From Candidatus Danuiimicrobium aquiferis (GTDB lineage Bacteria; Omnitrophota; Omnitrophia; Omnitrophales; Danuiimicrobiaceae), in NCBI GenBank assembly GCA_001804285.1, contig MHFR01000043.1:22970-86969 (forward strand): 64,000 bases of DNA. Direction: 5' to 3'. The translations under genes and the position numbers were made by a program. How positions within the stretch are numbered: position 1 is the first letter of the stretch; the number at the start of each line of letters is the position of its first letter. The notes beneath the pieces were generated by a model, which worked only from the letters and a program-made list of their open reading frames with translations, did no database searches and was not told where the DNA came from. Below, piece after piece: positions 12,646 to 62,988 of this stretch.

Positions 12646-12876
12646 CGTACAGGTGAAAAATCGTGTAGAGCTTGATTAAATACGGCATGTCCGGGTGCGG
12701 GATGGAATCAATCTGTTAATGCTTTTCTTTGAGTATGTCGAACCGAATGTCACAATTTCTTTATTATGTGGAGCTCAACATGAAATGATCTATCAGCCAT
12801 CTCATTTGCTCCCCAAATTATTACTCGTCAAACCCCGACTGTCTCAAACTCAAGATTCCCAGTTCGCACCCAATGC

Positions 12877-13617: not shown

Positions 13618-13618
13618 T

Positions 13619-46995: not shown

Positions 46996-47080
46996 TTGGC
47001 CTCACAGGCCTCCTTTCGTTTTCCCGAAATTGACTTTCTAAAATGCTCTGTTAATGATTGAAAAAAATATTGCGTTCTCA

Positions 47081-47521
47081 TTACCATCGGTTCCCCTTTC
47101 TGAAAGATATGAGGCTTGCCTGCGCCATTCTTAAAGATGAAAAACCATTAGGAAGGTAAATTCTTGAAACACGGTAACGCCTTTCTTTTGGTCTATAGGC
47201 AATCGCAGTTTCCCCTTTAAGATATTTCAAGAGCAGGCAGAGATTCGATTCGAGCTTTTCAAAAAACGGGCTGCATTCGATTCCGCTTAATTCGTCTGAG
47301 ACTTTCAAAAGAAGCTGTCCCAGTTTTTCACCTGGTCGATTTTTTTCAATAAACTTGAAAATCTCTCCTTTTAAGATACTGCACGATAAAGAAAGATGCT
47401 CGTTTTCACTGGCAGTGGACAATTTCATGTACAGGCTTTCGATTCTTTTCTTCAAACGATAGATTCTTGTTGCACGCTGCGCTTCCGATTCCCCGACATT
47501 CTCAAACCATCTCATAAACAT
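47081..47521 (-). CDS. Hypothetical protein (146 aa)
   Basis: ORF only. Confidence 0.4.
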   Translation of the reverse strand: MFMRWFENVGESEAQRATRIYRLKKRIESLYMKLSTASENEHLSLSCSILKGEIFKFIEKNRPGEKLGQLLLKVSDELSGIECSPFFEKLESNLCLLLKYLKGETAIAYRPKERRYRVSRIYLPNGFSSLRMAQASLISFRKGNRW

Positions 47522-47719
47522 TCACTTCTCCTTTTCTTCATGCCGATTGATACATTGCTCTAAGACATATAAATTCGTTTGTAAATTGCTCTACTGGCTT
47601 CATGGACACAACAGGCAGCGCATAAGCCCGGACAGAATCCGGCCTATCAATGACAAAGTAAATTAATACGATTCCCGAGTGAGATGATAAATGTTCTGAG
47701 CGGGCGGCCTGCTGATTCT

Positions 47720-48121
47720 TCATAGTTCCCCCTCTTCCGCGTACGCAATGCAGAATTCGTCACTTTCAAGCAAAGCGTAGCCACGAATGCTTAGAAACGC
47801 AAGAAAGTAGAAGCACAAAATCATGAGAAATCTATTCAGAATATAGAAATCTATTGTGAATAGATTTTTTAGGAGAAACCGGTTGTTTATTGGTTGCGGA
47901 TATAATGATGTATTTATTACCTGAAGATTAAGTGATTGTTGAAATAGACAGCAAGAATTTTCTACTAAATAAAATGGATGCTTTTCTACGAAAAACGGCT
48001 GAAATGCTTCTGCAGTCTTAACGAATGAGAAGACAAGAAACGTCAGAACAAAAACAAAAACCGAGTTTCTAAACTTTGGAAGAAATGAGAGTCGAAAAAC
48101 CGCCCAAGCTAACTTCTTCAC
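47720..48121 (-). CDS. Hypothetical membrane protein (133 aa)
   Basis: Hydrophobic N- and C-terminal segments. Confidence 0.35.
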   Translation of the reverse strand: MKKLAWAVFRLSFLPKFRNSVFVFVLTFLVFSFVKTAEAFQPFFVEKHPFYLVENSCCLFQQSLNLQVINTSLYPQPINNRFLLKNLFTIDFYILNRFLMILCFYFLAFLSIRGYALLESDEFCIAYAEEGEL

Positions 48122-48488
48122 GTCGAACCTCGTGAAGAACGGAATCGTAAATTGCTCTTAAACGTAAATTGAAATAAAACGTTTTAGAGCTTCCGCTCTT
48201 AGCTGGGCTTTTTTTGTTAGCTGGGCTTTTGATTGGATCGGAAAAAAATTGAATTTCTATGATCTTCTCTCCGACTTACTAAAAAACTATCGGAACTATA
48301 CCCCACATTTTTTCGTTTGTCAAATTTTTGAAGTATTTTTTTGAAAATATTTTATTCATCAGGTATATTTAAAGTGAGAGCAGCTAGACGCTGTGAGCCC
48401 AGCTAAGGCAACACATTCATCAGAACCTTTTCGCAAAGATCTTTTCGCTGCCCACACAATACTTTCAGAGAACAACTTCCTTAAAAAC

Positions 48489-48782
48489 TTAAAATCCAAA
48501 ATTGGCCTTCAACCGCTCTAAACGTAGAAACGCCATTTGAATAGCATACCCATCCCATGAGGCATCATGAATGAGTCCCAGAAGAAATGCGATATCGAAT
48601 TTCACGTAAAAATCCGGGGGAAGCTCATCAAGCAACGCTTTTAGCTTTATTTCAGCAGTAACCAAGGCTTCTTTCCTTGCCTTACCGTTAACATAATCTG
48701 AAAGGACCTGCCTTGAAAAAGCGAGAACTTCTTTTAAACAAGCGATTCTTTCTCGATTTACGGTATCAGAAACTTGATCCAT
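48489..48782 (-). CDS. Hypothetical protein (97 aa), last gene of the overlapping-ORF operon
   Basis: Overlaps the upstream ORF by 25 nt. Confidence 0.4.
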   Translation of the reverse strand: MDQVSDTVNRERIACLKEVLAFSRQVLSDYVNGKARKEALVTAEIKLKALLDELPPDFYVKFDIAFLLGLIHDASWDGYAIQMAFLRLERLKANFGF

Positions 48783-49024
48783 TTGGTTTTAGCCTCCTGT
48801 CTTTTTACTTTCATAAGCTTATCTATCTCTGAAATGGCAAAACTCAAAATCGGATGATCAAGTTTTTCAGAGGCAAAAGCCTGAATCTGGTCCAATACAC
48901 CTAATACCCGTTTCTTTTCCGCATATGCCATAATTGATTCTTCTAAGCATTTCCGTTCCTTTACTGCTTTCAAAATAAGTGAAAGAAAAACGGCTTCCGT
49001 ATCGTCCCTTAGAAAAATAATCAT
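48758..49024 (-). CDS. Hypothetical protein (88 aa)
   Basis: 4-nt overlap with the upstream gene and 25-nt overlap with the downstream gene. Confidence 0.4.
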   Translation of the reverse strand: MIIFLRDDTEAVFLSLILKAVKERKCLEESIMAYAEKKRVLGVLDQIQAFASEKLDHPILSFAISEIDKLMKVKRQEAKTKWIKFLIP

Positions 49025-49461
49025 TGAGCACCTCCCGTTACCGGGAAATGGACATTGTCAGACAATATTTTTCTATATTCTTCAGTACAAACTTGATTTA
49101 GTGCAAAACTTTCTCGGATAGCCAGTAAATGCTCTTTAGCGGAAAGACGATTTAATCGAGTTGGCTCAAGCAAAAACTGTTGGACAGCAAGCGATGCTCG
49201 AAATGCATGGATGAATGTGCCATCTGAAGTAAGAATAAGAACATTACGGCATAGATGATAGGTAATCTCAACAATAGCAACCTTTTCACGTTCTTCTATT
49301 TTATTCGAAGAATCTAAAATACCCCATAGATAAAAGATGGTGGAACGAATATCACACAAAATTCGATATGGCATTTTCAGACCGTTCCGCATAACAACTC
49401 CGTTTTGGCATTCCATCATTAAAAACACCTTCCTTTCAACAGGTTTCAAGCACGCCATCAT
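49021..49461 (-). CDS. Hypothetical protein (146 aa)
   Basis: Overlapping start and stop arrangement within the operon. Confidence 0.45.
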   Translation of the reverse strand: MMACLKPVERKVFLMMECQNGVVMRNGLKMPYRILCDIRSTIFYLWGILDSSNKIEEREKVAIVEITYHLCRNVLILTSDGTFIHAFRASLAVQQFLLEPTRLNRLSAKEHLLAIRESFALNQVCTEEYRKILSDNVHFPVTGGAQ

Positions 49462-50026
49462 TCACACAAGCGAAATCAGATTGATAAAATTCCTTCTCAG
49501 GGAAAACGTCCTCCGACAAACGCTGCTCAAGTTTTCTTTGCTTCAGAGCTTTGTCGCAAAGATCGACGCCCGTTCTTATCGAAATCACCGGAGCAGGGCC
49601 AAAATATAAATCCAATTCATCAATAAGCAACAATGCTTTCTCAACCACTTCCTTATTCGAAACTGCTTCACTCAAATATGTTTGTAAAAGCTCAAATTGG
49701 ATGCGTTTTTTAAAGCGTAATGTAAATTGATCGATATAGTCACTCACCCATGATTCCGCAATAAGAAGTGATGCCATGTCACCACTATTAATCCCTTTGT
49801 TAGAATCCATAAAACAATCCACAAGAACTCGCCGAATAAAATTGAACATCTTCTTCAGCCGGCATTTTTCGTCCATGTCTAGAAAGATATCCATCACAAT
49901 TGTTCCAAAAGCATCTATATGCGAACACGCTTGCTCCTGCCCGGCTATCATCGGAATCTCTAAATTCCCAACGGGCTTAGCACACATACAGTTCGCCTCC
50001 AAGCTCACGTTCAGTCTGTCGAACAC
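49436..50026 (-). CDS. Hypothetical protein (196 aa)
   Basis: Overlapping start and stop arrangement within the operon. Confidence 0.45.
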   Translation of the reverse strand: MFDRLNVSLEANCMCAKPVGNLEIPMIAGQEQACSHIDAFGTIVMDIFLDMDEKCRLKKMFNFIRRVLVDCFMDSNKGINSGDMASLLIAESWVSDYIDQFTLRFKKRIQFELLQTYLSEAVSNKEVVEKALLLIDELDLYFGPAPVISIRTGVDLCDKALKQRKLEQRLSEDVFPEKEFYQSDFACVNDGVLETC

Positions 50027-50116
50027 GTCTCATATATATCCTGCACCAGCGGTAATATTTTTCGATTTTCTTGGCAACCGATTTCCGTTTAGATTTTTTC
50101 ATATGAGTCACCCCTT

Positions 50117-50578
50117 CTAGCAATGAGCCGGAACATGACACAGAGTTTTAAATATTTCATAAATGCCGCGACGTACCTCATCTTTTACCCGCATACATAC
50201 GGGTTCTTTTCTCTCCTGAAAGTCCAAGTGGCATACAAGCCCTAACCCCTCGTAAATCATAGCTATCATTTCCATCGCTCGCTCCTTATGTTGTACACAT
50301 GTATTAGGATTCACTCGGAGACAATATCTTAAATACCGAAATGCATTACGAAATAACTGATGATCAGCACGAGGATTTAAGAAATGATGTTCCAAATCGA
50401 AAAGAAAAAACTGCATCCGCATAATGGTCGTTTCCTTCCTTAGATTCTTGCCCTGAAGCAACATGATAAGAATCCCCATATTATTCCCGAACCAGCCGCG
50501 AAAAAGAGTTTCACGGTCGTTTGGCAGTTGAAACCTTCCTTTTTCGTTTATGAGTTTCTCTATCAGTTGTTTATGCAT
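50117..50578 (-). CDS. Hypothetical protein (153 aa)
   Basis: 8-nt overlap with the upstream gene. Confidence 0.45.
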   Translation of the reverse strand: MHKQLIEKLINEKGRFQLPNDRETLFRGWFGNNMGILIMLLQGKNLRKETTIMRMQFFLFDLEHHFLNPRADHQLFRNAFRYLRYCLRVNPNTCVQHKERAMEMIAMIYEGLGLVCHLDFQERKEPVCMRVKDEVRRGIYEIFKTLCHVPAHC

Positions 50579-51242
50579 GAACCAGAGTCCTCCGTTTCAG
50601 ATTTTGAAGTGACTCCTTGAAGAATATTTGAACTTTTCTCATGATTTTTCGTACTCTTGGCTTAAGCCACCATATTTTGAAGTAATGTCTTCCCGAAAGA
50701 ATATCTTGAAGCTTGCGGAAGCTGCACATCTCGAAACATTCATTTTTCCCTTGTTTGCTATTTCGATGGCCATAGTAACTAGCGAAACTGCAAATCAATA
50801 TCCGGTATTGGGTCAAAAACTTGCACCATGTCATTTTATCTGATGGCTGTTCAATTAAGAGCACTTCAATCAATCGATCAATGAGAAGACTCAATCGATA
50901 GTCACCCGTTGGCGTAAACTCTTTAAGACATACCAAATGGGCAACAATGCGATTGACGGCATTCCCACTGGAATTAGGCAGATTCATTCCATTGAGAATC
51001 GCATACGTCGCCATTGAAAAAAACGATAGGGCATGACCTGAATTGTGATATTCTTGCTCTTCAATCGTATCCGCTTTCCGTTCAATACCCGCAGGCATGA
51101 CTATTCCGTTAATCATATCTTTCCAATTGTCACCGAAAATAAAGGAGGCTTTCTGGTAAAAATTACTTTCAAGTTGCTCATAATTCGTTTTATTCTCACT
51201 CTTACAATCTCGATTCTCCATCTTCTGTATCCTCCTATTCAT
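50571..51242 (-). CDS. Hypothetical protein (223 aa), first gene of the operon
   Basis: ORF divergent from the XRE-family regulator gene. Confidence 0.45.
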   Translation of the reverse strand: MNRRIQKMENRDCKSENKTNYEQLESNFYQKASFIFGDNWKDMINGIVMPAGIERKADTIEEQEYHNSGHALSFFSMATYAILNGMNLPNSSGNAVNRIVAHLVCLKEFTPTGDYRLSLLIDRLIEVLLIEQPSDKMTWCKFLTQYRILICSFASYYGHRNSKQGKNECFEMCSFRKLQDILSGRHYFKIWWLKPRVRKIMRKVQIFFKESLQNLKRRTLVHA

Positions 51243-51336
51243 TTCTAATCTCTGCTTCTAAAACGAAAGATACCACATCAATAAACCTTTTCAAGACCCA
51301 TAATAAAGATAGTTTTAGTTACAATATTATAAATAT

Positions 51337-51365
51337 TTGACAACCTACGTAACTACATGTATACT
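51337..51365 (+). promoter_or_regulatory. Near-consensus sigma70-type promoter (TTGACA, 17-nt spacer, TATACT) for the XRE/cupin regulator gene
   Basis: TTGACA at 51337-51342 and TATACT at 51360-51365, with an exact 17-nt spacer, about 100 nt upstream of the ATG at 51465. Confidence 0.4.
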
Positions 51366-51464
51366 TTGGTAGTTAAAGTGAATTTCAGATATCAAAAACC
51401 GAAAGAAAGTTGACAAATATTTTTTTAGAATTAGGTAAAGAAGTTTCTCGATCAGGATAGGGTA

Positions 51465-52793
51465 ATGTATAGAACTATTTGGAATAAATACATAGAATCA
51501 TCACCTAATTTCCCTACTAAACGGCGCCCCCTAGTTGGATCTGTGATAAAAGAAACCCGCATTGATAAAGGAATACGTCAAATGGATTTTGCTAAGCAAA
51601 TCAAAATGAACTGGTCCACATTGAAATCCATTGAAAACGATCACCAAAAAGCGACCACTGTCGAAAACCTCGAACGTTGCGCCAAACCATTAGGACTGGA
51701 TATCGATCAAATGATTCTCTCGGGACGAGAAAGAGATCCAGCAAACTGTTTTATTTTAAAAAAAACAGACCCAACACCAACAAAAGGAGTTAGAACCAGA
51801 AAAGCACTTCCCCCCGAATGGAACAAAAGCATTCGTTTTGACTTTAACACGTTTGATCTCACTCCAATTTCACCGCCAATTGCAACACAGAAAGATTTTT
51901 TCGCTGCCAAGATCGTTTTACCTCCTAAACGATCAATGGAAAATATGGTTCTTGGAGTCCATCACCAAGTTATGGGAATTATTTCAAATGGTTTTAATAT
52001 CAGAATTTCTTATGCGGGAACCGAAACGGTCGCTACCACCAACCAAGCATTTGCACTAGATGGCTATTTCCCCCACACTATTACAAATGAAGACGAAGAC
52101 ACTTCCGCAATAATTTATTTTGTTACCAAATTTCCCGATTTTGAACATACGAGAATTGTGCATGAACCTTCATTTCAATGGTCACCTGCCATTGATATTG
52201 CTGCAGGCGTGAAAAAAGTGCAGCGATATAAATCGGAAAGAAAAGATCGTTCAATTTCTGTTCAGCACCTCGCTGATTTAACTGACAATCTTGATGCAAT
52301 TCAATTACGAAAACTGATGCGGATTAAAAAAGATTCGTCCGTTATTTACTGGGATAAAATTGAAGATCTTCTTGGCGGAACAGGTATCACTATGAAGGAT
52401 TTTCTTGCGTGGTGTCATCATGGCGAGAAACAAAATATTTCCGTAGCCACTCCAACTGCACGCGCCGTGATTGATTACATGTCATTTTACAGTCTTAAAA
52501 TATATTCTGTCATACCGCCCCGCATCAATCCTCATTACTTTATCGGTGAGCTAATGATCGACGGGAAGAATAATCTTCCCCGAAAAAGATGGGAACGCGA
52601 AGATAACGCAATGATTGCCGTTTGCGTCATGGAGGGCGACTTAGAAATCAAAATAGGAACGTATAGAAATCCGTTGATGCTGACAAAAGGTGAAAGTATA
52701 TATTTTGACGGAAATCTTGGATACTCATTAAGCAATATCAGTGAGCCTCAAGTGAGGATATTCCTCGCGACATATCCTGCCATACGCTTTTAA
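51465..52793 (+). CDS. Transcriptional regulator: N-terminal XRE-family HTH plus C-terminal cupin-like domain (442 aa)
   Basis: IRQMDFAKQIKMNWSTLKSIENDH helix-turn-helix near the N-terminus. C-terminal LEIKIGTYRNPLMLTKGESIYFDGNLGYSL beta-barrel-like segment. Confidence 0.6.
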   Translation: MYRTIWNKYIESSPNFPTKRRPLVGSVIKETRIDKGIRQMDFAKQIKMNWSTLKSIENDHQKATTVENLERCAKPLGLDIDQMILSGRERDPANCFILKKTDPTPTKGVRTRKALPPEWNKSIRFDFNTFDLTPISPPIATQKDFFAAKIVLPPKRSMENMVLGVHHQVMGIISNGFNIRISYAGTETVATTNQAFALDGYFPHTITNEDEDTSAIIYFVTKFPDFEHTRIVHEPSFQWSPAIDIAAGVKKVQRYKSERKDRSISVQHLADLTDNLDAIQLRKLMRIKKDSSVIYWDKIEDLLGGTGITMKDFLAWCHHGEKQNISVATPTARAVIDYMSFYSLKIYSVIPPRINPHYFIGELMIDGKNNLPRKRWEREDNAMIAVCVMEGDLEIKIGTYRNPLMLTKGESIYFDGNLGYSLSNISEPQVRIFLATYPAIRF

Positions 52794-53609
52794 TTAAACC
52801 TTTAGCGTTCCTAACTCTGTTGCATACACCTTAATCAATTCTACAAGGTTAGGAAGTTTAAAAGGCTTCAGGATTAATTTCTCCGCAGGAAAACCAACGG
52901 CTGCCAGTCCGTCTTTTGCCCCTTGTTCGTAGCCTGCAGTTATTGGAATGATTTTAAGTGCAGGTTTCTTTGCGAGAATTTGCTTTATAATATCATGTCC
53001 ACTTGAACCCGGTATATGAATATCAACAACAACAATGTGACATTCATTATTTAGAACATATTCGAGACCTCGATCACCGCGATCAAATATCTCAACCTGA
53101 TAATTGCGATCGATCAAAGCCTCTTTAATAAAATCGCAAATATCTTCTTCATCGTCAATAATTACCACGCGAGTTGTATTGCTACGATAAATTTTGTCTT
53201 CATATTCGCTATGAAACTCCCCAGGAATTACAATGCGATTCAATTTCTGATTGATCTTCTTTTCAACATCCTCAAACGAGTTAAATGGCTTTACGATAAT
53301 ATCTTTTTCTGTCACACCAAGTTCTGCCAATTTATCTTTTTCATCTTTATAATAGGCCGTAATAATGAGCACGGGGATATTCAATTTCTTCTCACGCATC
53401 ATTTTAAGAATGTCGTATCCGGTTAATCTTTCCATCTTTAAATCGAGGAGCATTAAATCTACGTTAAACGTATCCAGCGTACGCTCAACAACCGTGGGAT
53501 CGGCAGTTGCGATCGGTTCATAATTACGTTTCTTAAAATGCAGGGTTAATTGTTCAATTACTGAAATATTATCATCGACGATTAAAACGGTAGTAGGTTT
53601 CGAGCTCAT
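52794..53609 (-). CDS. Tandem-receiver (REC-REC) response regulator with no output domain
   Basis: Two VLIVDDN / VVIIDDEED receiver modules, each with the conserved LLDLKM or VVDIHIP and KPF motifs. Confidence 0.75.
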   Translation of the reverse strand: MSSKPTTVLIVDDNISVIEQLTLHFKKRNYEPIATADPTVVERTLDTFNVDLMLLDLKMERLTGYDILKMMREKKLNIPVLIITAYYKDEKDKLAELGVTEKDIIVKPFNSFEDVEKKINQKLNRIVIPGEFHSEYEDKIYRSNTTRVVIIDDEEDICDFIKEALIDRNYQVEIFDRGDRGLEYVLNNECHIVVVDIHIPGSSGHDIIKQILAKKPALKIIPITAGYEQGAKDGLAAVGFPAEKLILKPFKLPNLVELIKVYATELGTLKV

Positions 53610-53639
53610 TTTGATGTTCTCCAGTTTGTTCAGAGATTC

Positions 53640-54026
53640 TTAACTTTTGTTCACCAGCTTTTTGATAATCTTAGTAATTATACCAGGCGTCATGTCGTCT
53701 GGCTTTTCTAAAACGTCGTCAACTAAACGAGCAATTCTTTCCTGCTGAAAAATGGGTTCTAAATGCTTAAAGGGAGTCGCTGACATAACAATAATTTTTG
53801 GTCTTCTAACCGCCTGTGAGAAACTTTTTATCACATCAACCCCTGAAACTCTACCCTCTAACCTCATATCAACAATCAAAACGTCAAATTGTGTATTTTT
53901 TAATAAGAACAATGCATCGTTTCCAGAGTTGGATACTGTAACGTCAAAGCCATCCGACACCAAATATTCCATCACAAAATTAGCAACATCTTTTTCGTCG
54001 TCAACGATTAGTATCTTTTCGCTCAT
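53640..54026 (-). CDS. Single-domain response regulator (receiver)
   Basis: ILIVDDEKD...VLIVDMRL...SATP...LEKP. Confidence 0.8.
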   Translation of the reverse strand: MSEKILIVDDEKDVANFVMEYLVSDGFDVTVSNSGNDALFLLKNTQFDVLIVDMRLEGRVSGVDVIKSFSQAVRRPKIIVMSATPFKHLEPIFQQERIARLVDDVLEKPDDMTPGIITKIIKKLVNKS

Positions 54027-54044
54027 AACTTTATTATAGTTAAA

Positions 54045-54890
54045 TTAAGTCGATAAAGGACCATTTCTTGCGAGATCACTTATTTTTTCAATAAGTTCCG
54101 ATATCTGAAAAGGTGTTGAAAGTGCATTTTTCATATAAAAACTATTCTCATTTGATAAATCCTTTGAATTTTGGGCATCTTTATTCAATATGGGTATAAG
54201 TTTAATATTTGTATTTGTCCTTGCCATCTGTATTAATGGCAAATGCTGCGAAATATCTGGAAGCCCAAGATCGAACACAACAATAGAACAAGGCTCGGGA
54301 TTTTTTCTTAAGAAATTACACGCATCTCCTATATCAATAAAAAATTTGCAGCTATAGCGTTCTCTTGGTATCGGACAATATATCTTACTAAAATACTCGT
54401 CTACAGCTTGACTTAATTCAATGTTTTTTCGCGCGAAAATAACATTTGTTTTTTCTTGCGGTTTAAGGTTCGGAACATCTTCTTTATATATTTTATAATA
54501 TGCAGCGGTGGCATCGTCTTGTGGATTTAAACTGTGATAAATAGTTTCAAAGAATTTCTTAATATTTTTAAAAAACGGTTCCTCAATAATTGTTATCGGT
54601 TCATTCTTATAAAGACGCATATTGTCTTTGGTAATAGAATAAACAATTGGTATAGAAATTCCTTTTTCCTTCAATTTCTTCCCAACATCCTTATAACCAT
54701 CCACATTTTTATAGTCTGTTGATTCAATAGCAATTAATAGCAAATCAACTTTGATGTCACTAATAATTTGCTCGATAACCCTCGGATCGGATATTCCTAT
54801 TGAGGCATAGTTCCAATTGTCAAAAAATGTCATATAACCGTCTAAAGCTGATTGGTCATCTATAATTAATATTGTTTTTCGATTTTCCAT
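54045..54890 (-). CDS. Receiver-like protein with two degenerate REC-type halves (281 aa)
   Basis: ILIIDDQSA in the first half and IVVFDLGLPD in the second; divergent from the canonical receiver pattern. Confidence 0.5.
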   Translation of the reverse strand: MENRKTILIIDDQSALDGYMTFFDNWNYASIGISDPRVIEQIISDIKVDLLLIAIESTDYKNVDGYKDVGKKLKEKGISIPIVYSITKDNMRLYKNEPITIIEEPFFKNIKKFFETIYHSLNPQDDATAAYYKIYKEDVPNLKPQEKTNVIFARKNIELSQAVDEYFSKIYCPIPRERYSCKFFIDIGDACNFLRKNPEPCSIVVFDLGLPDISQHLPLIQMARTNTNIKLIPILNKDAQNSKDLSNENSFYMKNALSTPFQISELIEKISDLARNGPLST

Positions 54891-54898
54891 AAAAACCC

Positions 54899-57160
54899 CT
54901 ACCTTATATTCTCAGGTCTTTTCATAGGAAGCCAAAATTTAAAAGTAGTTCCTTTGCCAATTTCACTTTCAACCCAGATTTTTCCGCCATGTTGCCTCTC
55001 AATGATTTCTCTGCAAACCCATAACCCATGTCCGTGCCCGGACGATTCAATATCGGATGATTTCGGTTTTGGTTTTGTGGAAAAACCTTGTTGCCATATC
55101 TTATCCTGAATTTCAGCAGAAATCCCCGGACCATTATCTTTAAATTCAAAATAAGCAACTTGTTTTCCGTCGATTTCTTCGAATCTTCCCTTAATTTTAA
55201 CTTCTCCGTCTTCCTTATCATTCATAGCATCGACTGCATTGTTGATAAGATTTACTAAAACTCTTTTGATCAAAACTGGGCTGCCAAATGGAAAGAATGT
55301 TTCTTTATCTGTGTCACGCCATATTTTAATTCTGCTCGGTTTTGCGTTTTCAGTTGCATTATCCCAAATCATTGTAAAATTAAACACCTCGAACATATCC
55401 TCGCTTCCGGAAAGCGTACCTTCTGCGGTTCTTAGGACAATAAAAAGTTCATCAGCTTTTGATCTAACATTGCACCCCTCATCTTTGATTTTCTCGATAA
55501 GTTTAATATTATTCTCCTCAACTTGCGGGGGAAATTTATCCTTTACGAATTGGTCGTAAATATTTTTTACGAAGGGATAGACTTTCATAACAAAAAAATC
55601 TGACTTCCAGCGAAGACCCACTATCGCATTTCTGGTCTCATGCGCAAGCGACTTGCTATAAGACACCATCCTTGCTTCTTCCTGCGCTTTTAGTTTCGCT
55701 TCCCGTTCATTAACCATCGTTTCAAAAAGGCGAACAATTTCAAATGTCATCGCGTGTTCCTGTGCTAATGTCGCAAGCATATCGAGATCTTGTTCAAAAT
55801 AATCTTCGTCAGACTTCTTTTTTCCTAGGGCTAATATCCCTTGAAATGTTATAGAATCTCGATTCCTTTGACCACCTTTGGAGCTACTCAGAAAACTGGG
55901 GACAATGACCTCTGCTTTCATTTTTTGAATCGTTCCGAGAATATCCGAAAAACGTTCACGGTTAACTGCATCCTTTGCGCTATTCAATTCCTCCTCTATT
56001 TGAGCCTTCGTAATCGGTACTTGTTGCTTAGCAATATAGCCAATAAGTGGATTATCCAACATCAATTTGAAATCAGGGCGATTGACTTTTCTAAAGCCGC
56101 TACAACCTTTAAGTTCGAAATGGTCGTTCTCCTGATCACGAAAATAAATCGCTGCATTACTCGTACGCGCCTTGTGAATCAAAACCACGAGCATCTTGCG
56201 TGTCAGCTCATTAAAACTTGTAACTAAAGCAATATCTTTACTTGCATCCTTTAAAATCTTTGCATAATCAAATTTCTTTTGGAAAAGATAATGGTCTGTA
56301 ATTTCAACCAAATATTTCCGAGCAGGATCATAGAGCAACATAGCAATGATAACACTGAGAACTCTAATACTTATTGCACCCATCCCCAAGTACTGGCCAA
56401 TATAACTTTGCGCCAAAACAGTTATTGCAGTGATTACGCTAATCAAAACACCAAAAAGGCCGGCAAACACAAGGGTCTTTTTGATAATGACTTCGATGTC
56501 CATAAGACGATGCTTCACTATGCTATAGGACATAATAATAGGGTACAAACAAATTAAGGCGCTACCATACGGTGGGAATGGAATATTAAAAATCAATAAA
56601 AACAATGAAATCCCGCCACTAAAACCCAGAAAAGATGCCACGGAAAGATAAATAATCCTCAAACGCTCATGCCCCTTAGTTTCTTTGATTGCCATCGTCA
56701 TAAGGATGTGCGCGTATGCGATAAACCAAACATACATAGCCGCATACACTGAGTAAAGTGGTCCCCAATCCGGATAGTATAAAATCCCCATTTTATTAAT
56801 AACATCGCGAACAACAAAAGGCGAAAAACAAGAAAAAAACATAAAAACGGAAAGTCCATAGCCTGTACGAAGAAGAGTTTTATGTCGTGCCTCCTGCCGC
56901 AGCAGGATTAAAACAAAGTGAAAAAAAGTGATCGGTATAAAGGCACCGCTGGCGTGTGAAAAACGACTGGATAAAATTGATGTCTGATAATTAATCGCTA
57001 AAAGGCTGATAAAATAACCTAAGCTCCAAATCCCTACAGTAAAACTAAATATAACCCAACTAATTTTCAGGTTGGTTCGCGGCTTATGGAAATAAACAAA
57101 CAATCCCAACCCGAGACCCAAAAATGCCGTCAGCCCTGTAATTATAGTATAAAAATACAT
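54899..57160 (-). CDS. Sensor histidine kinase, third paralogue of the polytopic-membrane kinase family
   Basis: H-box LAHETRNAIVGL; DNGPGIS and GHGHGLWVCREI HATPase motifs; N-terminal TM helices with an LMDIEVIIKKTLVFAGLF segment shared with the other two kinases. Confidence 0.85.
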   Translation of the reverse strand: MYFYTIITGLTAFLGLGLGLFVYFHKPRTNLKISWVIFSFTVGIWSLGYFISLLAINYQTSILSSRFSHASGAFIPITFFHFVLILLRQEARHKTLLRTGYGLSVFMFFSCFSPFVVRDVINKMGILYYPDWGPLYSVYAAMYVWFIAYAHILMTMAIKETKGHERLRIIYLSVASFLGFSGGISLFLLIFNIPFPPYGSALICLYPIIMSYSIVKHRLMDIEVIIKKTLVFAGLFGVLISVITAITVLAQSYIGQYLGMGAISIRVLSVIIAMLLYDPARKYLVEITDHYLFQKKFDYAKILKDASKDIALVTSFNELTRKMLVVLIHKARTSNAAIYFRDQENDHFELKGCSGFRKVNRPDFKLMLDNPLIGYIAKQQVPITKAQIEEELNSAKDAVNRERFSDILGTIQKMKAEVIVPSFLSSSKGGQRNRDSITFQGILALGKKKSDEDYFEQDLDMLATLAQEHAMTFEIVRLFETMVNEREAKLKAQEEARMVSYSKSLAHETRNAIVGLRWKSDFFVMKVYPFVKNIYDQFVKDKFPPQVEENNIKLIEKIKDEGCNVRSKADELFIVLRTAEGTLSGSEDMFEVFNFTMIWDNATENAKPSRIKIWRDTDKETFFPFGSPVLIKRVLVNLINNAVDAMNDKEDGEVKIKGRFEEIDGKQVAYFEFKDNGPGISAEIQDKIWQQGFSTKPKPKSSDIESSGHGHGLWVCREIIERQHGGKIWVESEIGKGTTFKFWLPMKRPENIR

Positions 57161-57221
57161 AATGGCCTTAAATATTTTGGAATAAAAAAAAGACTCTGAC
57201 TCATGCCGGGTCTTTTGTACA

Positions 57222-57848
57222 TCATATGAACAGCCCGTATCTTTTGAAATAATTCAAAACTGTTTCCGCAATAATTTTATGCCCGAGATCATTCGGATGT
57301 AAACCATCAGGTCCAATCACGTTTGTCACATCCTTTTCAAGTGGCGTTCTGATATCAATAAATTCCCATTCATACGCATGTACCATTCTCTCAATGGAAT
57401 CGCTATATTGTTTTTGCCACGAAACGGGGTCTCCATAAAAAGCGGTTTGTTCATTAAAGTGATTCGGAAAATTTTGAATAAATTTTTCACCATCCAAAGG
57501 CTGCAAATTCAAGAGAATAGCTATTTTATTATTAGCCGTTATTTGCTCAACAATTTTTTTTATATTATGCTCAAATTGCTCAATTGTGGTTTCGGGTTGG
57601 TTATTTGAGCGTATCCATGAGTCGTTGTTCCCAAAAAGAATCAAAACATGAGAACAAGATGGGTTCTGAAGCACATCGGATTCGAGCCTATTCAATCCCC
57701 CTGAGCTCGAATCTCTATTTAATCCTTTTAAAAAAACTGGTATATTAACGGACGCTTTAATAATTTTCGAACAACAATTATCCCTTGTAGAAGCGCCTGT
57801 ACCAGCAAGAACACTATCACCAAAACAAATAATTCCGATTACTTTCAT
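57222..57848 (-). CDS. SGNH/GDSL-family hydrolase
   Basis: GDS in block I (CFGDSVLAG), GNND in block III, and a DGLHPN catalytic Asp/His block. Confidence 0.7.
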   Translation of the reverse strand: MKVIGIICFGDSVLAGTGASTRDNCCSKIIKASVNIPVFLKGLNRDSSSGGLNRLESDVLQNPSCSHVLILFGNNDSWIRSNNQPETTIEQFEHNIKKIVEQITANNKIAILLNLQPLDGEKFIQNFPNHFNEQTAFYGDPVSWQKQYSDSIERMVHAYEWEFIDIRTPLEKDVTNVIGPDGLHPNDLGHKIIAETVLNYFKRYGLFI

Positions 57849-57857
57849 TTTGATAAA

Positions 57858-58676
57858 TCAACGATTCTTATATTGTGGTTGACGTTTATTAATGTATGCA
57901 TGAATGCCTTCCTTCATATCTTCCGACGCACAAACCTGCTCAAAACAATCCAATTCGATTTTTATTCCTTCCGATAAGGACTTTTTCATACCTTCGCGAA
58001 TCGCCTTTTGCGCATACGCGACGGCAAATTGGCTATTCCGTATAATCTTCTTCGCTATTTCCATCGATCGATTAAGGACTTCCCCGTGCTGCACTATTTC
58101 ATCTATCATTCCAATGTCATAGGCTTCCTGTGCCGTAATCATATCACCCGTTAAAATGATCTTTCTGGCCCGTGAAGTGCCAATTAAACGTGGCAAACGT
58201 TGAGTCGCACCCCAACCGGGAATAATCCCTAAATTTATTTCTGATTGAGCAAACTTCGATTTTTCAGAAGCAATGCGTAAATGACATGCTAAAATTAATT
58301 CATTTGCCCCACCAAAGCACATTGAATTAATTGCCGCTATAATAGGCTTGTCCGAATTCTCAACCTGATCATATAAATCTTGTCCTCTCTTCGCAAGAAC
58401 GCGTCCTTGCGCGGCATTATCGATGGATGCAATTTCGGTAATATCAGCACCCATCGAAAATGCTCGATCTCCCGCTCCCGTTATAATTAATATTTTCGCT
58501 TCGCGATCCTGGAAATATTGTTTCAGAACAACCTCAAATTCAGCAAAAAAAACAGGCGTAATAATATTGAGCGGGGGATTATTGATAGTCAAAATCCATA
58601 TCGCTTTAGTTTCTTCCGTACTCACAAACATCGTCTTGAATTTCGTCTCGGCTTCATTCATGATTGAACAATCCAT
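57858..58676 (-). CDS. Enoyl-CoA hydratase/isomerase (crotonase fold)
   Basis: ILTINNPPLN...ITGAGDRAFSMGADI...GGANELILACH. The true start may be an internal Met. Confidence 0.8.
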   Translation of the reverse strand: MDCSIMNEAETKFKTMFVSTEETKAIWILTINNPPLNIITPVFFAEFEVVLKQYFQDREAKILIITGAGDRAFSMGADITEIASIDNAAQGRVLAKRGQDLYDQVENSDKPIIAAINSMCFGGANELILACHLRIASEKSKFAQSEINLGIIPGWGATQRLPRLIGTSRARKIILTGDMITAQEAYDIGMIDEIVQHGEVLNRSMEIAKKIIRNSQFAVAYAQKAIREGMKKSLSEGIKIELDCFEQVCASEDMKEGIHAYINKRQPQYKNR

Positions 58677-58686
58677 TCTTTGATAA

Positions 58687-58992
58687 TTATCGTTTAATAC
58701 CTCTCTGCTTTTGCAGATGAATAATATAATCTACGATATCAGATAATTTGCGCTTTGTACTAACTTCACTCAAGTTGGGACTTATTTGAAAATCGTCTTC
58801 AATCGCATTCATTAAATCTAGGGATTCAAGCGAATCCACGCCCAAATCCTCCGCTAAATCTGTCTCCCAATTCAATTGAGGCCTGTTTTCCGGCTTCTTC
58901 TCTTTCATCACTTTCAATAAATTCATTAAAATTCCTTTTAAGCGATTAAAGATTTCTTCTCTGTTCGGGTTTATTGCTCCGCTCTCTGCCAT
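58687..58992 (-). CDS. Acyl carrier protein (about 101 aa)
   Basis: DLGVDSLESLDLMNAIEDDF phosphopantetheine-attachment motif. The ATG at 58992 has an AGGAGGG RBS and begins 1 nt after the KAS stop. The N-terminal extension shown in the ORF track was rejected. Confidence 0.75.
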   Translation of the reverse strand: MAESGAINPNREEIFNRLKGILMNLLKVMKEKKPENRPQLNWETDLAEDLGVDSLESLDLMNAIEDDFQISPNLSEVSTKRKLSDIVDYIIHLQKQRGIKR

Positions 58993-58993
58993 A

Positions 58994-60232
58994 TTAATCC
59001 CTCCTAAATACAAGAACTGCGTTATTAGAACCAAATCCAAAAGAATTTGAAACCACCACTTCCAATTTAGCCGCACGGCCTTGATTGGGAACATAATCAA
59101 GATCACAATCAGGATCTGGCGTATTCAAATTAATAGTTGGCGGGATAAATCCTTTCTCTATTGATAAACAACATATAATAGCCTCGATTGCTCCTGCAGC
59201 TCCAATCGTATGACCAATCATTGATTTAATGCTACTAATCGGAATTTTTTTTGCGTATTCGTTAAAAACTAACTTAATAGCCTTTGTTTCAGCAAGGTCA
59301 TTCCACTTTGTCGAAGTGCCGTGCGCGTTAATATAGTCTACATCCATTGGTTCGAGACCTGCATCGTCCAAGGCAAGCTTCATAGCTGCCGCAGCATCTT
59401 CACCGGAAGGATTGGGTGTAACCATATGATATGCTCCGCAATTGGAACCGAAGCCCGCAATTTCGGCATAAATATGCGCTCCCCTTGCTTGCGCATGTTC
59501 GGCATTCTCAAGAATTAAAATACCGGCCCCTTCGCCCAATACAAAACCTTCCCGAGTTAAATCAAATGGGCGAGAAGCCTTTGTGGGATTATTATTATCA
59601 GGACTTAATACCATCATTTGTTGATAAGCAGCGAATGTTACTCGACTTATTGGTGCTTCGACGCCGCCAGTAACTGCAATATTTGCAACCCCCTGCCGAA
59701 TCTTATTACAAGCTTCACCAATTGCTTGCGCACTCGAAGAACACGCTGTTGATATAACTTGATTCACGCCCTTGATTCCATATTGCAAGGCAATATAGGC
59801 AGAAACCGCATTGGGCGTTATCCGCGGAACTGAACTCGCAGCGGCTTTCTTAGGATCATCATGTTTAACAACCTCAATAATCGTTTCCTCGTGAAAATTA
59901 TTGCCCCCTTGACCGGAACCAATAATAACGATTGCTTGTGTTAATGCACCATTTTCAGAGCTTAATTTTGCATCATCCAAAGCTAATTTAGCAGCTGCTA
60001 GCCCCAAATGCGCAAAACGATCTGTCTTTCGCATAACAGCTATCGGCATATATTCAACCGGGTCAAAATTTTTCACTTCTGCAGCAGTTTTGACACTATA
60101 TTTGGCAATGTCAAATCGGGTAATAAAATCAATCCCCGACTTCCCGCCAAACGTCGATGCGGCGAATTCATTCACACCAATACCGTTAGGAGCGACAATG
60201 CCTAATCCCGTGACGACTACCCTCTTTTTCAC
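58994..60232 (-). CDS. Beta-ketoacyl-ACP synthase (KAS I/II type, FabF-like)
   Basis: Active-site Cys in TACSSSAQAIG, HGTST and GHTIGAAG histidines, 412 aa. Confidence 0.9.
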   Translation of the reverse strand: MKKRVVVTGLGIVAPNGIGVNEFAASTFGGKSGIDFITRFDIAKYSVKTAAEVKNFDPVEYMPIAVMRKTDRFAHLGLAAAKLALDDAKLSSENGALTQAIVIIGSGQGGNNFHEETIIEVVKHDDPKKAAASSVPRITPNAVSAYIALQYGIKGVNQVISTACSSSAQAIGEACNKIRQGVANIAVTGGVEAPISRVTFAAYQQMMVLSPDNNNPTKASRPFDLTREGFVLGEGAGILILENAEHAQARGAHIYAEIAGFGSNCGAYHMVTPNPSGEDAAAAMKLALDDAGLEPMDVDYINAHGTSTKWNDLAETKAIKLVFNEYAKKIPISSIKSMIGHTIGAAGAIEAIICCLSIEKGFIPPTINLNTPDPDCDLDYVPNQGRAAKLEVVVSNSFGFGSNNAVLVFRRD

Positions 60233-60600
60233 AAATACTCCCGCATCGTTATCATTAAACGATCTAAATCGAATGGCTTTTGAATAATCTCGCCAAATTT
60301 TTCTGCTTTCAAATGAATGCTGTCTTCCGCATATCCTGTAATGAAAATAACCGGCAAATCTTTTTTATTGTCCTTCTTACGTTGTTCTTGAATGAAATTG
60401 ATAGCATCAACTCCATTCATCTTGGGCATTCGAATATCCGCAAATATAATATCGAATTCAATTTCTTTTGCATACTGTAAAGCCACTTCACCTTGATCTG
60501 CTAAACGATAATCATATCCCTGCTTTTTTAAAAGAGCTCCCAGCGTTTTTAAAACCAATTCATCATCATCTATTACTAGAACTTTTTTCCCAATAGACAT
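60229..60600 (-). CDS. Single-domain response regulator (receiver)
   Basis: VLVIDDDEL...IIFADIRMP...FITGY...QKPF. The ATG at 60600 has a GAGGAAA RBS; the stop overlaps the KAS start as ATGA. Confidence 0.8.
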   Translation of the reverse strand: MSIGKKVLVIDDDELVLKTLGALLKKQGYDYRLADQGEVALQYAKEIEFDIIFADIRMPKMNGVDAINFIQEQRKKDNKKDLPVIFITGYAEDSIHLKAEKFGEIIQKPFDLDRLMITMREYL

Positions 60601-60601
60601 A

Positions 60602-61438
60602 CTATATTTTCCTCGCCGTACAAAGGTTATACATGTTCCATTGATCACGGCTAATGATTATATCTTGAAAGCCAATCTTATGTAACCATTCTCGCCAGAA
60701 GTTGGGTTTTCGATAATACAAAACCCATGCACCTTCTTTAGTTTTACCTATTTTTTCCATAAGTTTTCTGCTTGGATTATTCTCCTGACTATCAAACAAG
60801 AACATCCCACCATCATCTAAAGCATCATAAGCATTCTTCATGACATCGATTGATTTGTTATCATCAATATATACGGTCAGGCCAGAAGCAACGATAATAT
60901 TTGGCTTCCAATCAATCCCTCCTCCAAACTTTTTCAAGAGACTCAATCGAAAAACATTGCCCCTGACAAAACGCAAACTCGTTTCGGGAACGTCATATTC
61001 TTTTGCCAATGCCTGCCCGTATCGAATCGATTTTTTGTCATAATCCACAGCAACGGTTTCAATCGCTTGCCCCTTGAATAATTGGGCGATATCTAATAAA
61101 TATCGACCTGTCCCGCAAGCGACATCAACAATCATAGTCACTTTTCCCGATATTTTATTATTCTCTACCTCATTACTTAAAATTTTGATCAGATTGTTTC
61201 TACGATTTCGCGTTGCTTGAACCGATGGAAGATTTAACAAGATTGAATCAACTAAATACCCCAGAGGATTATAGCCCGACGGCTTATTTTGATACATATA
61301 GTCAAAATTATAACCAGTCGCCGCTTCACCCAAAACGCTTTGACGTCCAAATTTACTCATCAATAATAAATTGCGAATAATTTTTTGATACAAAACATCT
61401 TCGAATAAAGTAGAGATTTTTTTGTTAAAATTTGCCAT
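60602..61438 (-). CDS. Class I SAM-dependent methyltransferase
   Basis: Motif I VDVACGTGRY and a DALDDGGMFLF post-II region. Confidence 0.75.
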   Translation of the reverse strand: MANFNKKISTLFEDVLYQKIIRNLLLMSKFGRQSVLGEAATGYNFDYMYQNKPSGYNPLGYLVDSILLNLPSVQATRNRRNNLIKILSNEVENNKISGKVTMIVDVACGTGRYLLDIAQLFKGQAIETVAVDYDKKSIRYGQALAKEYDVPETSLRFVRGNVFRLSLLKKFGGGIDWKPNIIVASGLTVYIDDNKSIDVMKNAYDALDDGGMFLFDSQENNPSRKLMEKIGKTKEGAWVLYYRKPNFWREWLHKIGFQDIIISRDQWNMYNLCTARKI

Positions 61439-61447
61439 CGTTATTTC

Positions 61448-61729
61448 TTACGTTAAACTGTTATCATTTTCAATATGAATGCCATGTTTCTTAAGTAACG
61501 GTTTATAAAGGTGTCTCAAATCTTCCATCCCTGGGAAATTGGCCAATTTCTCGAGATTCTTCCTCGCCGCTTGATATCGCCTTCCAACGCGCAAAAGTTG
61601 CCAGGTTAAGATTAGAACGATCGGAATGCCGATCGCAGATAGAACCAAATAAACCTTATCCATATCACGCCAAAACTGCAGACCATTTTCACTTCGAAGA
61701 AAAGTATCAACTCTTCTCAACCAATCCAT
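61448..61729 (-). CDS. Small membrane protein (93 aa), hypothetical
   Basis: One TM helix (AIGIPIVLILTWQLL). Confidence 0.35.
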   Translation of the reverse strand: MDWLRRVDTFLRSENGLQFWRDMDKVYLVLSAIGIPIVLILTWQLLRVGRRYQAARKNLEKLANFPGMEDLRHLYKPLLKKHGIHIENDNSLT

Positions 61730-61930
61730 TTGCTAAATCTCCTGCTTTTATTTCATCATGCACTATAAGCCCCTGTGCTCATCAAACACAGACAAGATTC
61801 GACACACACCTGTTGGGCTAATTTATCTAATTATCGACTGCCGTTAAAATAAGCTAAACAACGGCTTAATTTTACGCCTACAACATGGCAATGACTATAG
61901 AAATATACAAGGTCAGAAAGGGCTATTTTA

Positions 61931-62317
61931 TTAAACAAAAACGATTTGACCCAAAATTTGCTTCAGCTGGCCAATGGCAAACGGTTTTACTAAACATTCA
62001 TCAGCACCTAATTGAATCGCTTTTTCTACGGTGCTTATTTGATCATCAGTTGTCATTGCAATTACTTTGGTACCGGGACTAATAGCCCTTATAAATGCCA
62101 ATAACTCTAGGCCGTATGAGGGTGCTGAGGCAAACTCCAAGGCGAGAAATAGCCACTTCGGCGTTTCTGATTCTATCATTTTGATAACTTTAGACGGCTC
62201 ACTTACAGTTAATATTTCAAAGACCGATTTCCCAGTGCGCTGTTCCAAATGCTCAAGCATGGCATTCTTGAGAACCTCACAAAGGTCTGGAACGTCCGCA
62301 ATTAAAATTTTATTCAT
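61931..62317 (-). CDS. Receiver-domain protein (128 aa), somewhat degenerate
   Basis: ILIADVPD...VIAMTTDD...LVKPF receiver-like pattern. Confidence 0.6.
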   Translation of the reverse strand: MNKILIADVPDLCEVLKNAMLEHLEQRTGKSVFEILTVSEPSKVIKMIESETPKWLFLALEFASAPSYGLELLAFIRAISPGTKVIAMTTDDQISTVEKAIQLGADECLVKPFAIGQLKQILGQIVFV

Positions 62318-62785
62318 GAAAGTTTATAGAATGGAATTTGTCTCTTTGTTCTTATCACTTTTCGGCACATAAGACCCAAAACTCAATGATATCCGAAACT
62401 GGCTGGCTACGGGTGAGCCACCCACACCCTTTATAAAAAAGGGGTTGTTTATAATTAAGTGCTTTCTTGAGCATCGCAAAGACAGGATTATTCATAACAT
62501 CACACTGTGAAGATTTATTAGGGAGCGTAAGTTCCGCTGAAAGTAAGAACAGGATTTAATAAATAAGAACGATTTCTTACCCTACTTCCACATTCGAAAT
62601 GACAAATGAACTATTTTGAGAATGTGTAACTCTGGTTAAGAGCTGGTGTCCAAAAAGTCTCCATAGGTGACCTAAAATTACACAAATTGGACGACATTGG
62701 CATGAACTAAAAACGCAAAGTAATTTCTTGCTGCTGAACGAGATACGTTGATTTTGAAGGGCTTACAAAAAATCATCCAAACGGA

Positions 62786-62824
62786 TCCCAAAGCAGGTGC
62801 TCTAGCCACCTGAGCTACGCCCCG
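62786..62824 (-). pseudogene. Truncated tRNA-Pro(UGG): only the 5' half is present (acceptor 5' strand, D-arm, 5' anticodon stem and anticodon loop)
   Basis: The minus strand reads CGGGGCG TA GCTC AGGTGGCTA GAGC A CCTGC TTTGGGA, which folds as a canonical D-arm with a UUUGGGA loop (anticodon UGG, G37). The next bases TCCGT cannot pair with CCTGC, and no 3' half was found within 450 nt. Confidence 0.55.
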
Positions 62825-62856
62825 ACAACATATGTTTCAAATATTTCTTCTATCAA

Positions 62857-62900
62857 GGCGTAGCGTCTTGTCCGCCGCGTTCTTTGGCGGAAGCTACGCC
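62857..62900. repeat. Compound hairpin whose 3' arm is a second copy of the tRNA 5' end
   Basis: Outer stem GGCGTAGC / GCTACGCC and inner stem TCCGCC / GGCGGA. The 13-mer AGCTACGCCCCGA occurs at 62813-62825 and again at 62892-62904. Confidence 0.6.
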
Positions 62901-62988
62901 CCGATGAAGATTTTTGTAGAAGGCGAATTATACCACTTTTTAAAAAAAAGGAAACCAGTACGTCGCCTATCATGACTCGCACTATATT

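Follow-up and report, generated by a model that had tools for sequence, protein, structure and literature searches.

Why should a tRNA gene stop at the last base of its anticodon loop, and what has taken the place of the rest? The question is raised by a locus in a 64,000-nucleotide (nt) stretch of the genome of Candidatus Danuiimicrobium aquiferis (Omnitrophota; assembly GCA_001804285.1, contig MHFR01000043.1), which in its full length is referred to here as the window. The minus strand from 62824 to 62786 reads CGGGGCG-TA-GCTC-AGGTGGCTA-GAGC-A-CCTGC-TTTGGGA and continues with TCCGTTTGG. It comprises the acceptor 5′ strand, a D-arm whose stem has 4 bp, the 5′ strand of the anticodon stem and the full 7-nt loop UUUGGGA, with the anticodon UGG and G37, corresponding to canonical positions 1–38 of tRNA-Pro(UGG), which occupy 39 nt because the D-loop has 9 nt. 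These 39 nt are a truncated orthologue of the resident, syntenic tRNA-Pro(UGG) gene, and we consider it probable that they are a non-functional 5′ end of the tRNA gene (tDNA), left behind by integrase-type recombination in the anticodon loop.

The identity of the fragment was established by comparison with an intact tRNA-Pro(UGG) gene on a metagenome contig, L020. The fragment is identical to the first 39 nt of that gene (39/39), which past position 38 continues with GCAGGGGGTCGCGCGTTCAAATCGCGCCGCCCCGA (GCAGG-GGGTC-GCGCG-TTCAAAT-CGCGC-CGCCCCG-A). Identity to the intact orthologues covers positions 1–38 and ends at the last base of the anticodon loop, in line with an earlier note on this DNA, which had described half a tRNA-Pro(UGG) gene broken exactly after that loop. 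The same note held that the following bases cannot form the anticodon 3′ stem and that no T-arm or acceptor 3′ strand occurs in the next 450 gene-free nt, and both statements agree with our results: the post-break bases TCCGTTTGGATGATTTTTTG are unable to pair with CCTGC, so the anticodon 3′ stem is not formed, and a complete cloverleaf is absent at the fragment, which lacks this stem strand, the T-arm and the acceptor 3′ strand. BLAST comparison of the locus and of the L020 tRNA-Pro 3′ half with the 64-kb window gave only chance matches of ≤12 nt. ARAGORN at its default threshold called no tRNA in the whole window; Rfam gave no match at 62200–63100 even at E ≤ 10 and none at the gathering score in the whole window; and a 67-nt segment at the fragment folds no better than its shuffles (z = +0.6). 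No tRNA, intron or 3′ half was found in the window, in 10 kb upstream or in 5.9 kb past the window start. The other end, which the note had placed beyond the window, is indeed not represented by any 3′ half within these 64 kb.

Its genomic position identifies the fragment independently of its letters. We compared the locus with related Omnitrophota contigs (L021/L022, L024–L026, L027, L029 and L033) in addition to L020. The upstream gene run, encoding a MamF-like protein, a large open reading frame (ORF), a BFN-domain protein, a thioredoxin-reductase-like protein, an ORF of ~105 aa and a DUF547 protein, is kept in the five relatives, and in four of the five (L021/L022, L024–L026, L027 and L033) it is followed by an intact tRNA-Pro(UGG) gene, with a GH1 gene, or a GH1 gene and a VTT-domain gene, between DUF547 and the tRNA. 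The GH1 gene is absent at this place in the window and in L029. The fragment occupies the site of the relatives' intact tRNA-Pro(UGG) gene, and its resemblance to that gene is therefore far beyond chance. The conserved gene order ends at the break base. Past tRNA-Pro, L024–L026, L027 and L033 carry NlpC/P60 and TatA genes and then tRNA-Arg, with TatC also present in L024–L026 and L033; none of these four is found in the window. Judged by the identities of the flanking proteins, the window is the outgroup, and L029 branches off next. The window DUF547 protein is 100% identical to one listed by NCBI under Omnitrophica bacterium RIFCSPLOWO2_12_FULL_44_17, its next-best homologues are only ~44% identical, and scanning the genome contigs of species representatives with this protein returned only relatives of 26–40% identity, none of them close. 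A 29-mer from the fragment start was found at one locus in the metagenome scan, that of the intact gene in L020, and scans of viral contig collections gave no match.

A junction of this kind might also be an assembly chimera, joined via tRNA sequence common to several genomes. In the Logan assemblies (k = 31), contigs L003 and L004 end and contigs L007 and L008 start in the same 30-mer (62796–62825, base −1 to position 29), indicating that the samples contain this stretch in a further context as well, which may be another tRNA-Pro isoacceptor; moreover, a second truncated copy, in L029, lies only ~145 nt from its contig end. Against a chimera, the junction, taken from positions 30–38 onward past the break, agrees in every base among four assemblies: an ENA MEGAHIT contig of 115 kb (ERZ27254754 k141_2079226, whose record coordinates exceed those of the window by 23021), one from JGI, and two Logan contigs assembled from different samples. 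L007 and L008 cross it without a branch. Since four independent assemblies agree at the junction, it is real DNA and no assembly artefact; a chimera was rejected as extremely unlikely.

The relatives show what else has happened at this site. In L021/L022, a Phage_integrase gene begins 190 nt past the intact tRNA-Pro(UGG); neither a tRNA fragment nor the far end of the element was found after this integrase, over the 4.5 kb that could be read. In L020 and L027, an orphan AAATCCTCTCGCCCCGA, made up of a T-loop 3′ part, one strand of a T-stem and an acceptor strand, lies ~95 nt past the intact tRNA, and its T-stem (CCTCT) matches the L024 gene and differs from the gene just upstream. Such an orphan bears the classic signature of an original 3′ end displaced after an element supplied a new one. 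The intact genes are near-identical up to the variable loop, and their T-stems differ (GCGTG, GCGCG, GGAGG and GCAGG), a variation to be expected if elements supply the 3′ halves. Finally, L029 (GCA_964373885.1, contig CAYJWM010000019.1) has its truncated tRNA-Pro(UGG) in the equivalent place of the conserved gene order: the copy reads CGGGGCGTAGCTCAGCTGGCTTAGAGCACCTGCTTTGGGAGCA before it passes into unrelated sequence, with the break at 41/42, itself ~145 nt from the contig end, and no tRNA called. Together, the integrase gene after the tRNA in L021/L022, the displaced 3′ ends in L020 and L027 and the truncation in L029 mark the locus as demonstrably a recombination hotspot and a target of integrative elements in this lineage. 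The post-break DNA of the window and that of L029 are no more similar than shuffled sequences (p about 0.1–0.5); the two breaks therefore occur without a recognisable common element, and a shared element at both truncated loci was rejected.

Two further features were seen near these genes. After the intact tRNA-Pro, L020 (~1555–1645, minus strand) and L027 (~7432–7528) each contain a structured stretch of ~95 nt that has an inverted T-arm-like site, CGCGATTTGAAGAGG, and the orphan AAATCCTCTCGCCCCGA as its limits; these stretches look like remnants of integration at a T-loop site. In L027, ~230 nt downstream of tRNA-Arg, a partial tRNA at 9818–9875 (positions 8–63 of the Rfam tRNA model, 47 bits) abuts an rve_3 transposase gene.

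In the window, a non-coding stretch of 468 nt stands in place of the tRNA 3′ half. At its beginning (62767–62786) stand the weak AUCC-GUUU-GGAU hairpin and a U6 run, and it contains no tRNA-like sequence, Rfam match or significant fold (z = −0.19). The earlier note had allowed for an unusually long intron here, that is, a complete tRNA interrupted in or next to the anticodon loop. The break at 38/39 adjoins the usual intron site, 37/38 (PMC4033280), and the intron mode of ARAGORN, when relaxed to -ps90, builds a tRNA-Pro(ggg) with a 49-nt intron. That model, obtained only below the normal threshold, is 88 nt long, with a mismatched acceptor stem and T-arm and a shifted anticodon, and at the default threshold the intron mode finds nothing. 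Nor does Rfam report a group I or II intron family at E ≤ 10; the 468 nt fold no better than shuffles; and no GCAGG, T-arm or CGCCCCGA exon occurs anywhere in the window. With no default ARAGORN call, no intron family, no fold and no 3′ exon, the intron is effectively refuted and its probability close to nil.

Base composition changes at the break as well. The GC content is 0.38–0.39 over the 15.8 kb starting at the break, compared with 0.436 in the 10.8-kb host flank and 0.42–0.44 in the window from 1 to 47 kb. The low-GC block holds six unannotated ORFs (47–51 kb), none with a Pfam or PHROG match, and a signalling/lipid cassette; its edge at ~47–49 kb shows no tRNA fragment, integrase remnant or direct repeat of an attachment (att) site. 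The edge of the anticodon loop, the end of synteny and the shift in composition thus all fall at the break.

This coincidence bears on the possibility that a random deletion or rearrangement removed the 3′ half without any mobile element, its position at the loop edge being fortuitous. Random loss fits the lack of an integrase or att repeat near the break, the adjoining genes, which are not mobile-element genes, and a locus whose gene content has otherwise changed, as the absence of GH1 here and in L029 indicates. It sits poorly with a break that falls precisely where the 7-nt loop ends, this loop being the canonical overlap region, with a second lineage (L029) truncated within 3 nt of the same spot, with the demonstrated use of the locus as an integrase target, and with a GC shift that begins at the break. 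We regard random loss as unlikely, though far from negligible.

The account that we consider probable invokes a tyrosine-integrase-type strand exchange inside the 7-nt anticodon loop, the standard 'anticodon-centred' att sublocation, which would have linked the host 5′ part with foreign DNA and left the gene unrestored. This could have come about by the integration of an element, either one whose common core is short, as in tRNA-dependent lysogeny, or one of the minority class that displaces a 5′ fragment. Alternatively, the DNA between att-like sites could have been deleted or inverted after an ordinary integration. As the gene now stands, its first 38 positions are kept, together with a leader hairpin described below, and unrelated DNA has replaced positions 39 onward. 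The ~80 kb examined do not contain the partner junction, be it a 3′ half or a rebuilt tRNA.

The anticodon loop is a well-documented crossover site of integrases, as the earlier note had assumed: among 3919 mapped islands, 2083 have anticodon-centred att sites, and for 159 the fragment left behind is 5′, not 3′ (PMC4383910). Like the tDNA fragments catalogued by Islander (Hudson, Lau and Williams 2015, PMC4383910), the fragment here is an end fragment broken at the anticodon loop, its inner boundary lies at one of the known att sublocations (anticodon loop, T-loop and T/acceptor junction), the locus is used by integrases in relatives, and foreign-looking DNA begins at the break. Islander, however, defines islands by a cognate full-length tRNA gene and an integrase at the junction, with the cognate tDNA on the same replicon, in the same orientation and 2–200 kb downstream of the 5′ fragment, and the integrase inside that interval. 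Within the 68.7 kb covered here, neither a cognate tRNA gene nor an integrase beside a junction was found, and the three tandem recombinase genes lie ~62 kb from the fragment. In the tRNA-dependent lysogeny of some actinobacteriophages (Guerrero-Bustamante and Hatfull 2024, PMC10865867), a tRNA attB with a ~10-bp core is left unreconstructed and its loss is made good by a phage tRNA, and the outcome of such short-core integration would look like the present junction. That system needs an element tRNA of the same isotype, and none is found in the 68.7 kb downstream; its described elements are actinobacteriophages, whereas no phage genes were seen here. ARAGORN and Rfam searches of the available DNA, namely the window, L001 and L035–L038, likewise found no tRNA that an element could carry. 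In archaea, a later inversion can part a fragment from the full gene (van der Gulik et al. 2023, PMC9897764). Such separated partial tRNAs resemble the present one in marking an old integration whose partner is distant or lost, but they have identifiable partners, and here none was identified.

Several observations weigh against recombination by an integrase. No integrase gene or remnant lies beside the break, the sole recombinases being ~62 kb away, and these form a trio of a kind described as a small element of its own. No cognate tRNA-Pro, 3′ half or element tRNA occurs in 62.8 kb of the window plus 5.9 kb beyond it, and no att direct repeat at the far edge of the low-GC block. The genes at the break belong to a signalling/lipid cassette rather than to classic mobile-element genes, and the core of this cassette occurs elsewhere without the fragment. 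The Logan contigs L007 and L008 run unbroken through 38/39, which, by the logic of a k = 31 graph, argues that those samples hold no second copy that is identical at positions 9–38 and of comparable abundance. The break is consistent with integrase action and is no proof of it. Of the earlier note's proposal of an att-site scar or integrated-element junction, the part on a tRNA fragment with an integrase-type breakpoint is supported, among other things by the synteny break and the low-GC block; the role assigned to a repeat nearby is not.

That repeat is a 13-mer covering the tRNA 5′ end, which the note had found duplicated in a nearby hairpin. It occurs exactly twice in the window, start to start 79 nt apart (Table 1), and in L021/L022 (repeat families D13 and D9) the hairpin copy likewise starts 79 nt before the tRNA. 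The upstream copy belongs to a leader hairpin whose outer stem, CGGGGCGUAGC/GCUACGCCUUG, has a 5′ arm copying tRNA positions 1–11 and imitates the acceptor stem of the tRNA. The stem encloses an inner UCCGCC-AAAGAACGC-GGCGGA hairpin together with a CAAGAC bulge, and the base after it, 62853, is an A. Its predicted folding energy is −31.6 kcal/mol (z = −5.4), and 0 of 200 shuffles folded as well. Hairpins that start with a 7- to 16-nt copy of the tRNA 5′ end also precede the intact tRNA-Pro genes of L020, L021, L024, L027 and L033. In L029, the one hairpin stretch that was folded, cut short, gave no significant fold (z = +0.47). Most of these hairpins close with ...CCCCG-A, imitating the acceptor stem and discriminator. 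The copied arm tracks the tRNA of each genome (TAGC or TGGC at positions 8–11), and the opposite arm compensates, with GTGGC/GCCAC in L021 and GTAGC/GCTGC in L027. The hairpins of L021 and L027 can be aligned with each other, and that of the window shares only their architecture; none matches an Rfam family. Since hairpins made of the tRNA's own 5′ end stand before the relatives' intact genes, the 13-mer is not an att scar; the repeat predates the truncation and has no connection with it.

Upstream of the leader hairpin, by ~25 nt, lies an extended −10-like box, a candidate tRNA promoter that the consensus scan did not list and that has no −35 match. Similar boxes are read at a similar distance before the first hairpin in L021, L024, L027, L029 and L033, which suggests that the hairpins lie in a transcribed leader. 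As a processing signal or by sequestering the 5′ strand, they could be a functional pre-tRNA leader element; they could also be the debris of repeated recombination or duplication on the 5′ side. The 178-bp repeats of E. coli tyrT are also tRNA-adjacent repeats that carry part of the tRNA sequence. Unlike these, the hairpin copies here are of the 5′ end, lie upstream and resemble an acceptor stem.

Copies of the gene's own 5′ end (GCGCCC...) also stand upstream of tRNA-Arg(UCU) genes, in L024 (~10883–11041), L027 (~9380–9514) and L033 (~10109–10207), so the phenomenon is not specific to tRNA-Pro. Those in L027 form, by eye, hairpin-like inverted repeats, and the duplication in L024 spans 18 nt of upstream flank and tRNA positions 1–15. 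An inner hairpin of the form TCCGCC-N7-9-GGCGG(A/G) recurs in the tRNA-Pro leader of the window (62870–62890), in the trailer of L020 (~1575–1595, minus strand) and in the tRNA-Arg leader of L027 (~9398–9420).

The retained promoter-like box and leader hairpin, together with a 5′ part that has not decayed, are what a functional fragment would show, either as the 5′ half of a trans-joined split tRNA-Pro(UGG) or as a selected RNA resembling a tRNA half. The two truncated copies lie on the two deepest branches of the sampled group and differ only in the D-loop, yet their flanks cannot be aligned. tRNA-Pro(UGG) is normally indispensable, and the Logan graph suggests no second identical copy. The split tRNAs of Nanoarchaeum equitans and Crenarchaeota (PMC4033280) similarly have a 5′ half that ends past the anticodon and a promoter-like region of its own. 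They differ from the present case in that no 3′ half or complementary leader was found here: neither a 3′ half nor anything complementary to the trailer UCCGUUUGGAUGAU occurs in ~80 kb. The trailer lacks structure and is not conserved from one truncated locus to the other, and the breaks differ (38/39 in the window, 41/42 in L029). Furthermore, split tRNAs are tabulated only in Archaea and need the archaeal splicing endonuclease (PMC4033280); joining in trans would require such an enzyme and a ligase that act on a bulge-helix-bulge junction. L020, with an identical 5′ half, has an intact gene, so that a recent truncation explains the lack of decay. We therefore consider a functional fragment very unlikely, and give as little credence to the view that selection has kept the 5′ half in the two deepest lineages as a piece of a split tRNA-Pro(UGG).

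The genes on the far side of the break were examined as possible carriers of the fragment. The cassette directly downstream encodes, in order, a response regulator, a 93-aa ORF, a methyltransferase, a response regulator, KAS, ACP, an enoyl-CoA hydratase, a GDSL lipase and a HisKA_7TM kinase, followed by a 281-aa ORF, two response regulators and a divergent HTH/cupin regulator. Its core, from the methyltransferase to the GDSL lipase, is found together in the unrelated L030–L032, where there is no tRNA-Pro fragment, and in L031 and L032 the cassette extends to the HisKA_7TM kinase, response regulators and HTH/cupin regulator. The methyltransferase is 63–67% identical to those of L030–L032, compared with only ~44% between the flanking DUF547 protein and its nearest homologues. 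Here the GC content of the cassette is 0.38. The cassette as carrier was rejected, given these homologous cassettes without a tRNA-Pro fragment. The retained tRNA promoter now likely reads into the downstream response-regulator operon, a read-through that is predicted because no strong terminator lies between the two. Beyond the low-GC block are two giant surface-protein ORFs that carry bacterial Ig-like, RHS-repeat and glucodextranase-B-like segments. Two-component genes are also present further along the window.

Mobile-element genes occur at the opposite end of the window (Table 1), the conjugation genes and recombinases being about 48–63 kb from the fragment. An open tyrosine recombinase frame runs off the window start (tblastn, 100% identity over residues 69–337) and is the first of three tandem recombinase genes (337, 325 and 309 aa) present in L035–L038 (12579–15492 in L035), two of these assemblies (L036 and L038) breaking inside the trio. 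The trio, followed past the window start by DUF932 and HTH genes, resembles in its layout the 'recombinase in trio' elements listed in PMC3414803. No other integrase remnant was detected in the window. The genes at 9215–15340 are those of a conjugative or mobilisable element and of a restriction-modification system. The mobile-element and defence-like genes over 2621–15340 and L035 15846–19291 also include a DUF2201 metallopeptidase/VWA gene with an AAA_5 MoxR-like ATPase, a PC4-like ORF, and genes for DUF932 and HTH proteins. The 5.9 kb past the window start contain no tRNA, 3′ half or convincing att repeat. At L035 18264–18300, ~4.9 kb past the window start, there is a perfect 12-bp hairpin, TGGGGCGGCATG...CATGCCGCCCCG-AG, whose 3′ arm holds the 11-mer GCCGCCCCGAG, equal to the 3′ end of the L020 tRNA-Pro plus one flanking base. 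This 11-mer could be due to chance, could belong to another acceptor-stem-like hairpin or could be an att remnant; as the far att junction it was not convincing.

Table 1. Coordinates of the truncated tRNA-Pro(UGG) locus, of comparable features in relatives and of neighbouring genes (n, number of hairpins)
Feature	DNA	Position	Strand	Basis or remark
tRNA-Pro(UGG) 5′ fragment	Window	62786..62824	-	Sequence reading, identity to L020, synteny with intact genes
Second copy of 13-mer TCGGGGCGTAGCT (base −1 and tRNA positions 1–12)	Window	62813..62825	-	
Leader hairpin with upstream 13-mer copy (62892-62904)	Window	62854..62903	-	Fold and architecture of relatives
Extended −10-like box TGgTATAAT, candidate tRNA promoter	Window	62927..62935	-	Sequence reading
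Non-coding stretch in place of tRNA 3′ half, 468 nt	Window	62318..62785	-	
Low-GC block abutting the break	Window	47000..62785	.	GC values
Gene cassette directly downstream of the break	Window	51465..62317	-	
Second truncated tRNA-Pro(UGG)	L029	6016-6057		Same syntenic position; GCA_964373885.1, CAYJWM010000019.1
Phage_integrase gene with Int_N domain, 348 aa	L021/L022	8497-9543		
Hairpin, n = 1	L020	1765-1813	-	z = −7.4
Hairpin, n = 1	L021	8157-8220		z = −2.8; copy begins 79 nt before tRNA, as in the window
Hairpin, n = 1	L024	8263-8322		z = −3.8
Hairpins, n = 2	L027	7181-7236, 7276-7340		z = −3.8, −4.4; second copy ~80 nt before tRNA
Hairpins, n = 3 (two with the same sequence)	L033	7829-7878, 7889-7927, 7971-8020		z = −5.2, −5.2 (two sequences folded)
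Upstream hairpins, n = 2	L029	First ~5879-5925		Sequence reading; first starts CGGGGCG
Giant ORF, 1618 aa	Window	42139-46995	-	
Giant ORF, 5712 aa	Window	24961-42099	-	
Eco57I-type methylase	Window	13619-15340	-	
XhoI endonuclease	Window	12877-13617	-	
Replic_Relax protein	Window	11075-11854	-	
Type IV coupling protein	Window	9215-11068	-	
C-terminal 269 aa of 337-aa tyrosine recombinase	Window	1..810	+	Pfam Phage_integrase, E = 2e-31

The feature is real and of an already known kind, a truncated tRNA gene at an integration hotspot. Were the 5′ half indeed part of a split tRNA-Pro(UGG), it would be the first split tRNA in Bacteria. As the remains of recombination in the anticodon loop, it exemplifies the rarer outcome in which a 5′ fragment stays behind or the gene is not reconstituted, here in a bacterium of a little-studied phylum, and it marks the boundary of acquired DNA in that poorly known group. 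Annotators should treat the syntenic tRNA-Pro(UGG) of this genome as dead; the working copy has to lie in some other place. Two matters could weigh more than the fragment itself: whether the genome holds any intact tRNA-Pro(UGG), and the hairpins built from the gene's own 5′ end, which recur before tRNA-Pro across the lineage and have similar copies at tRNA-Arg.

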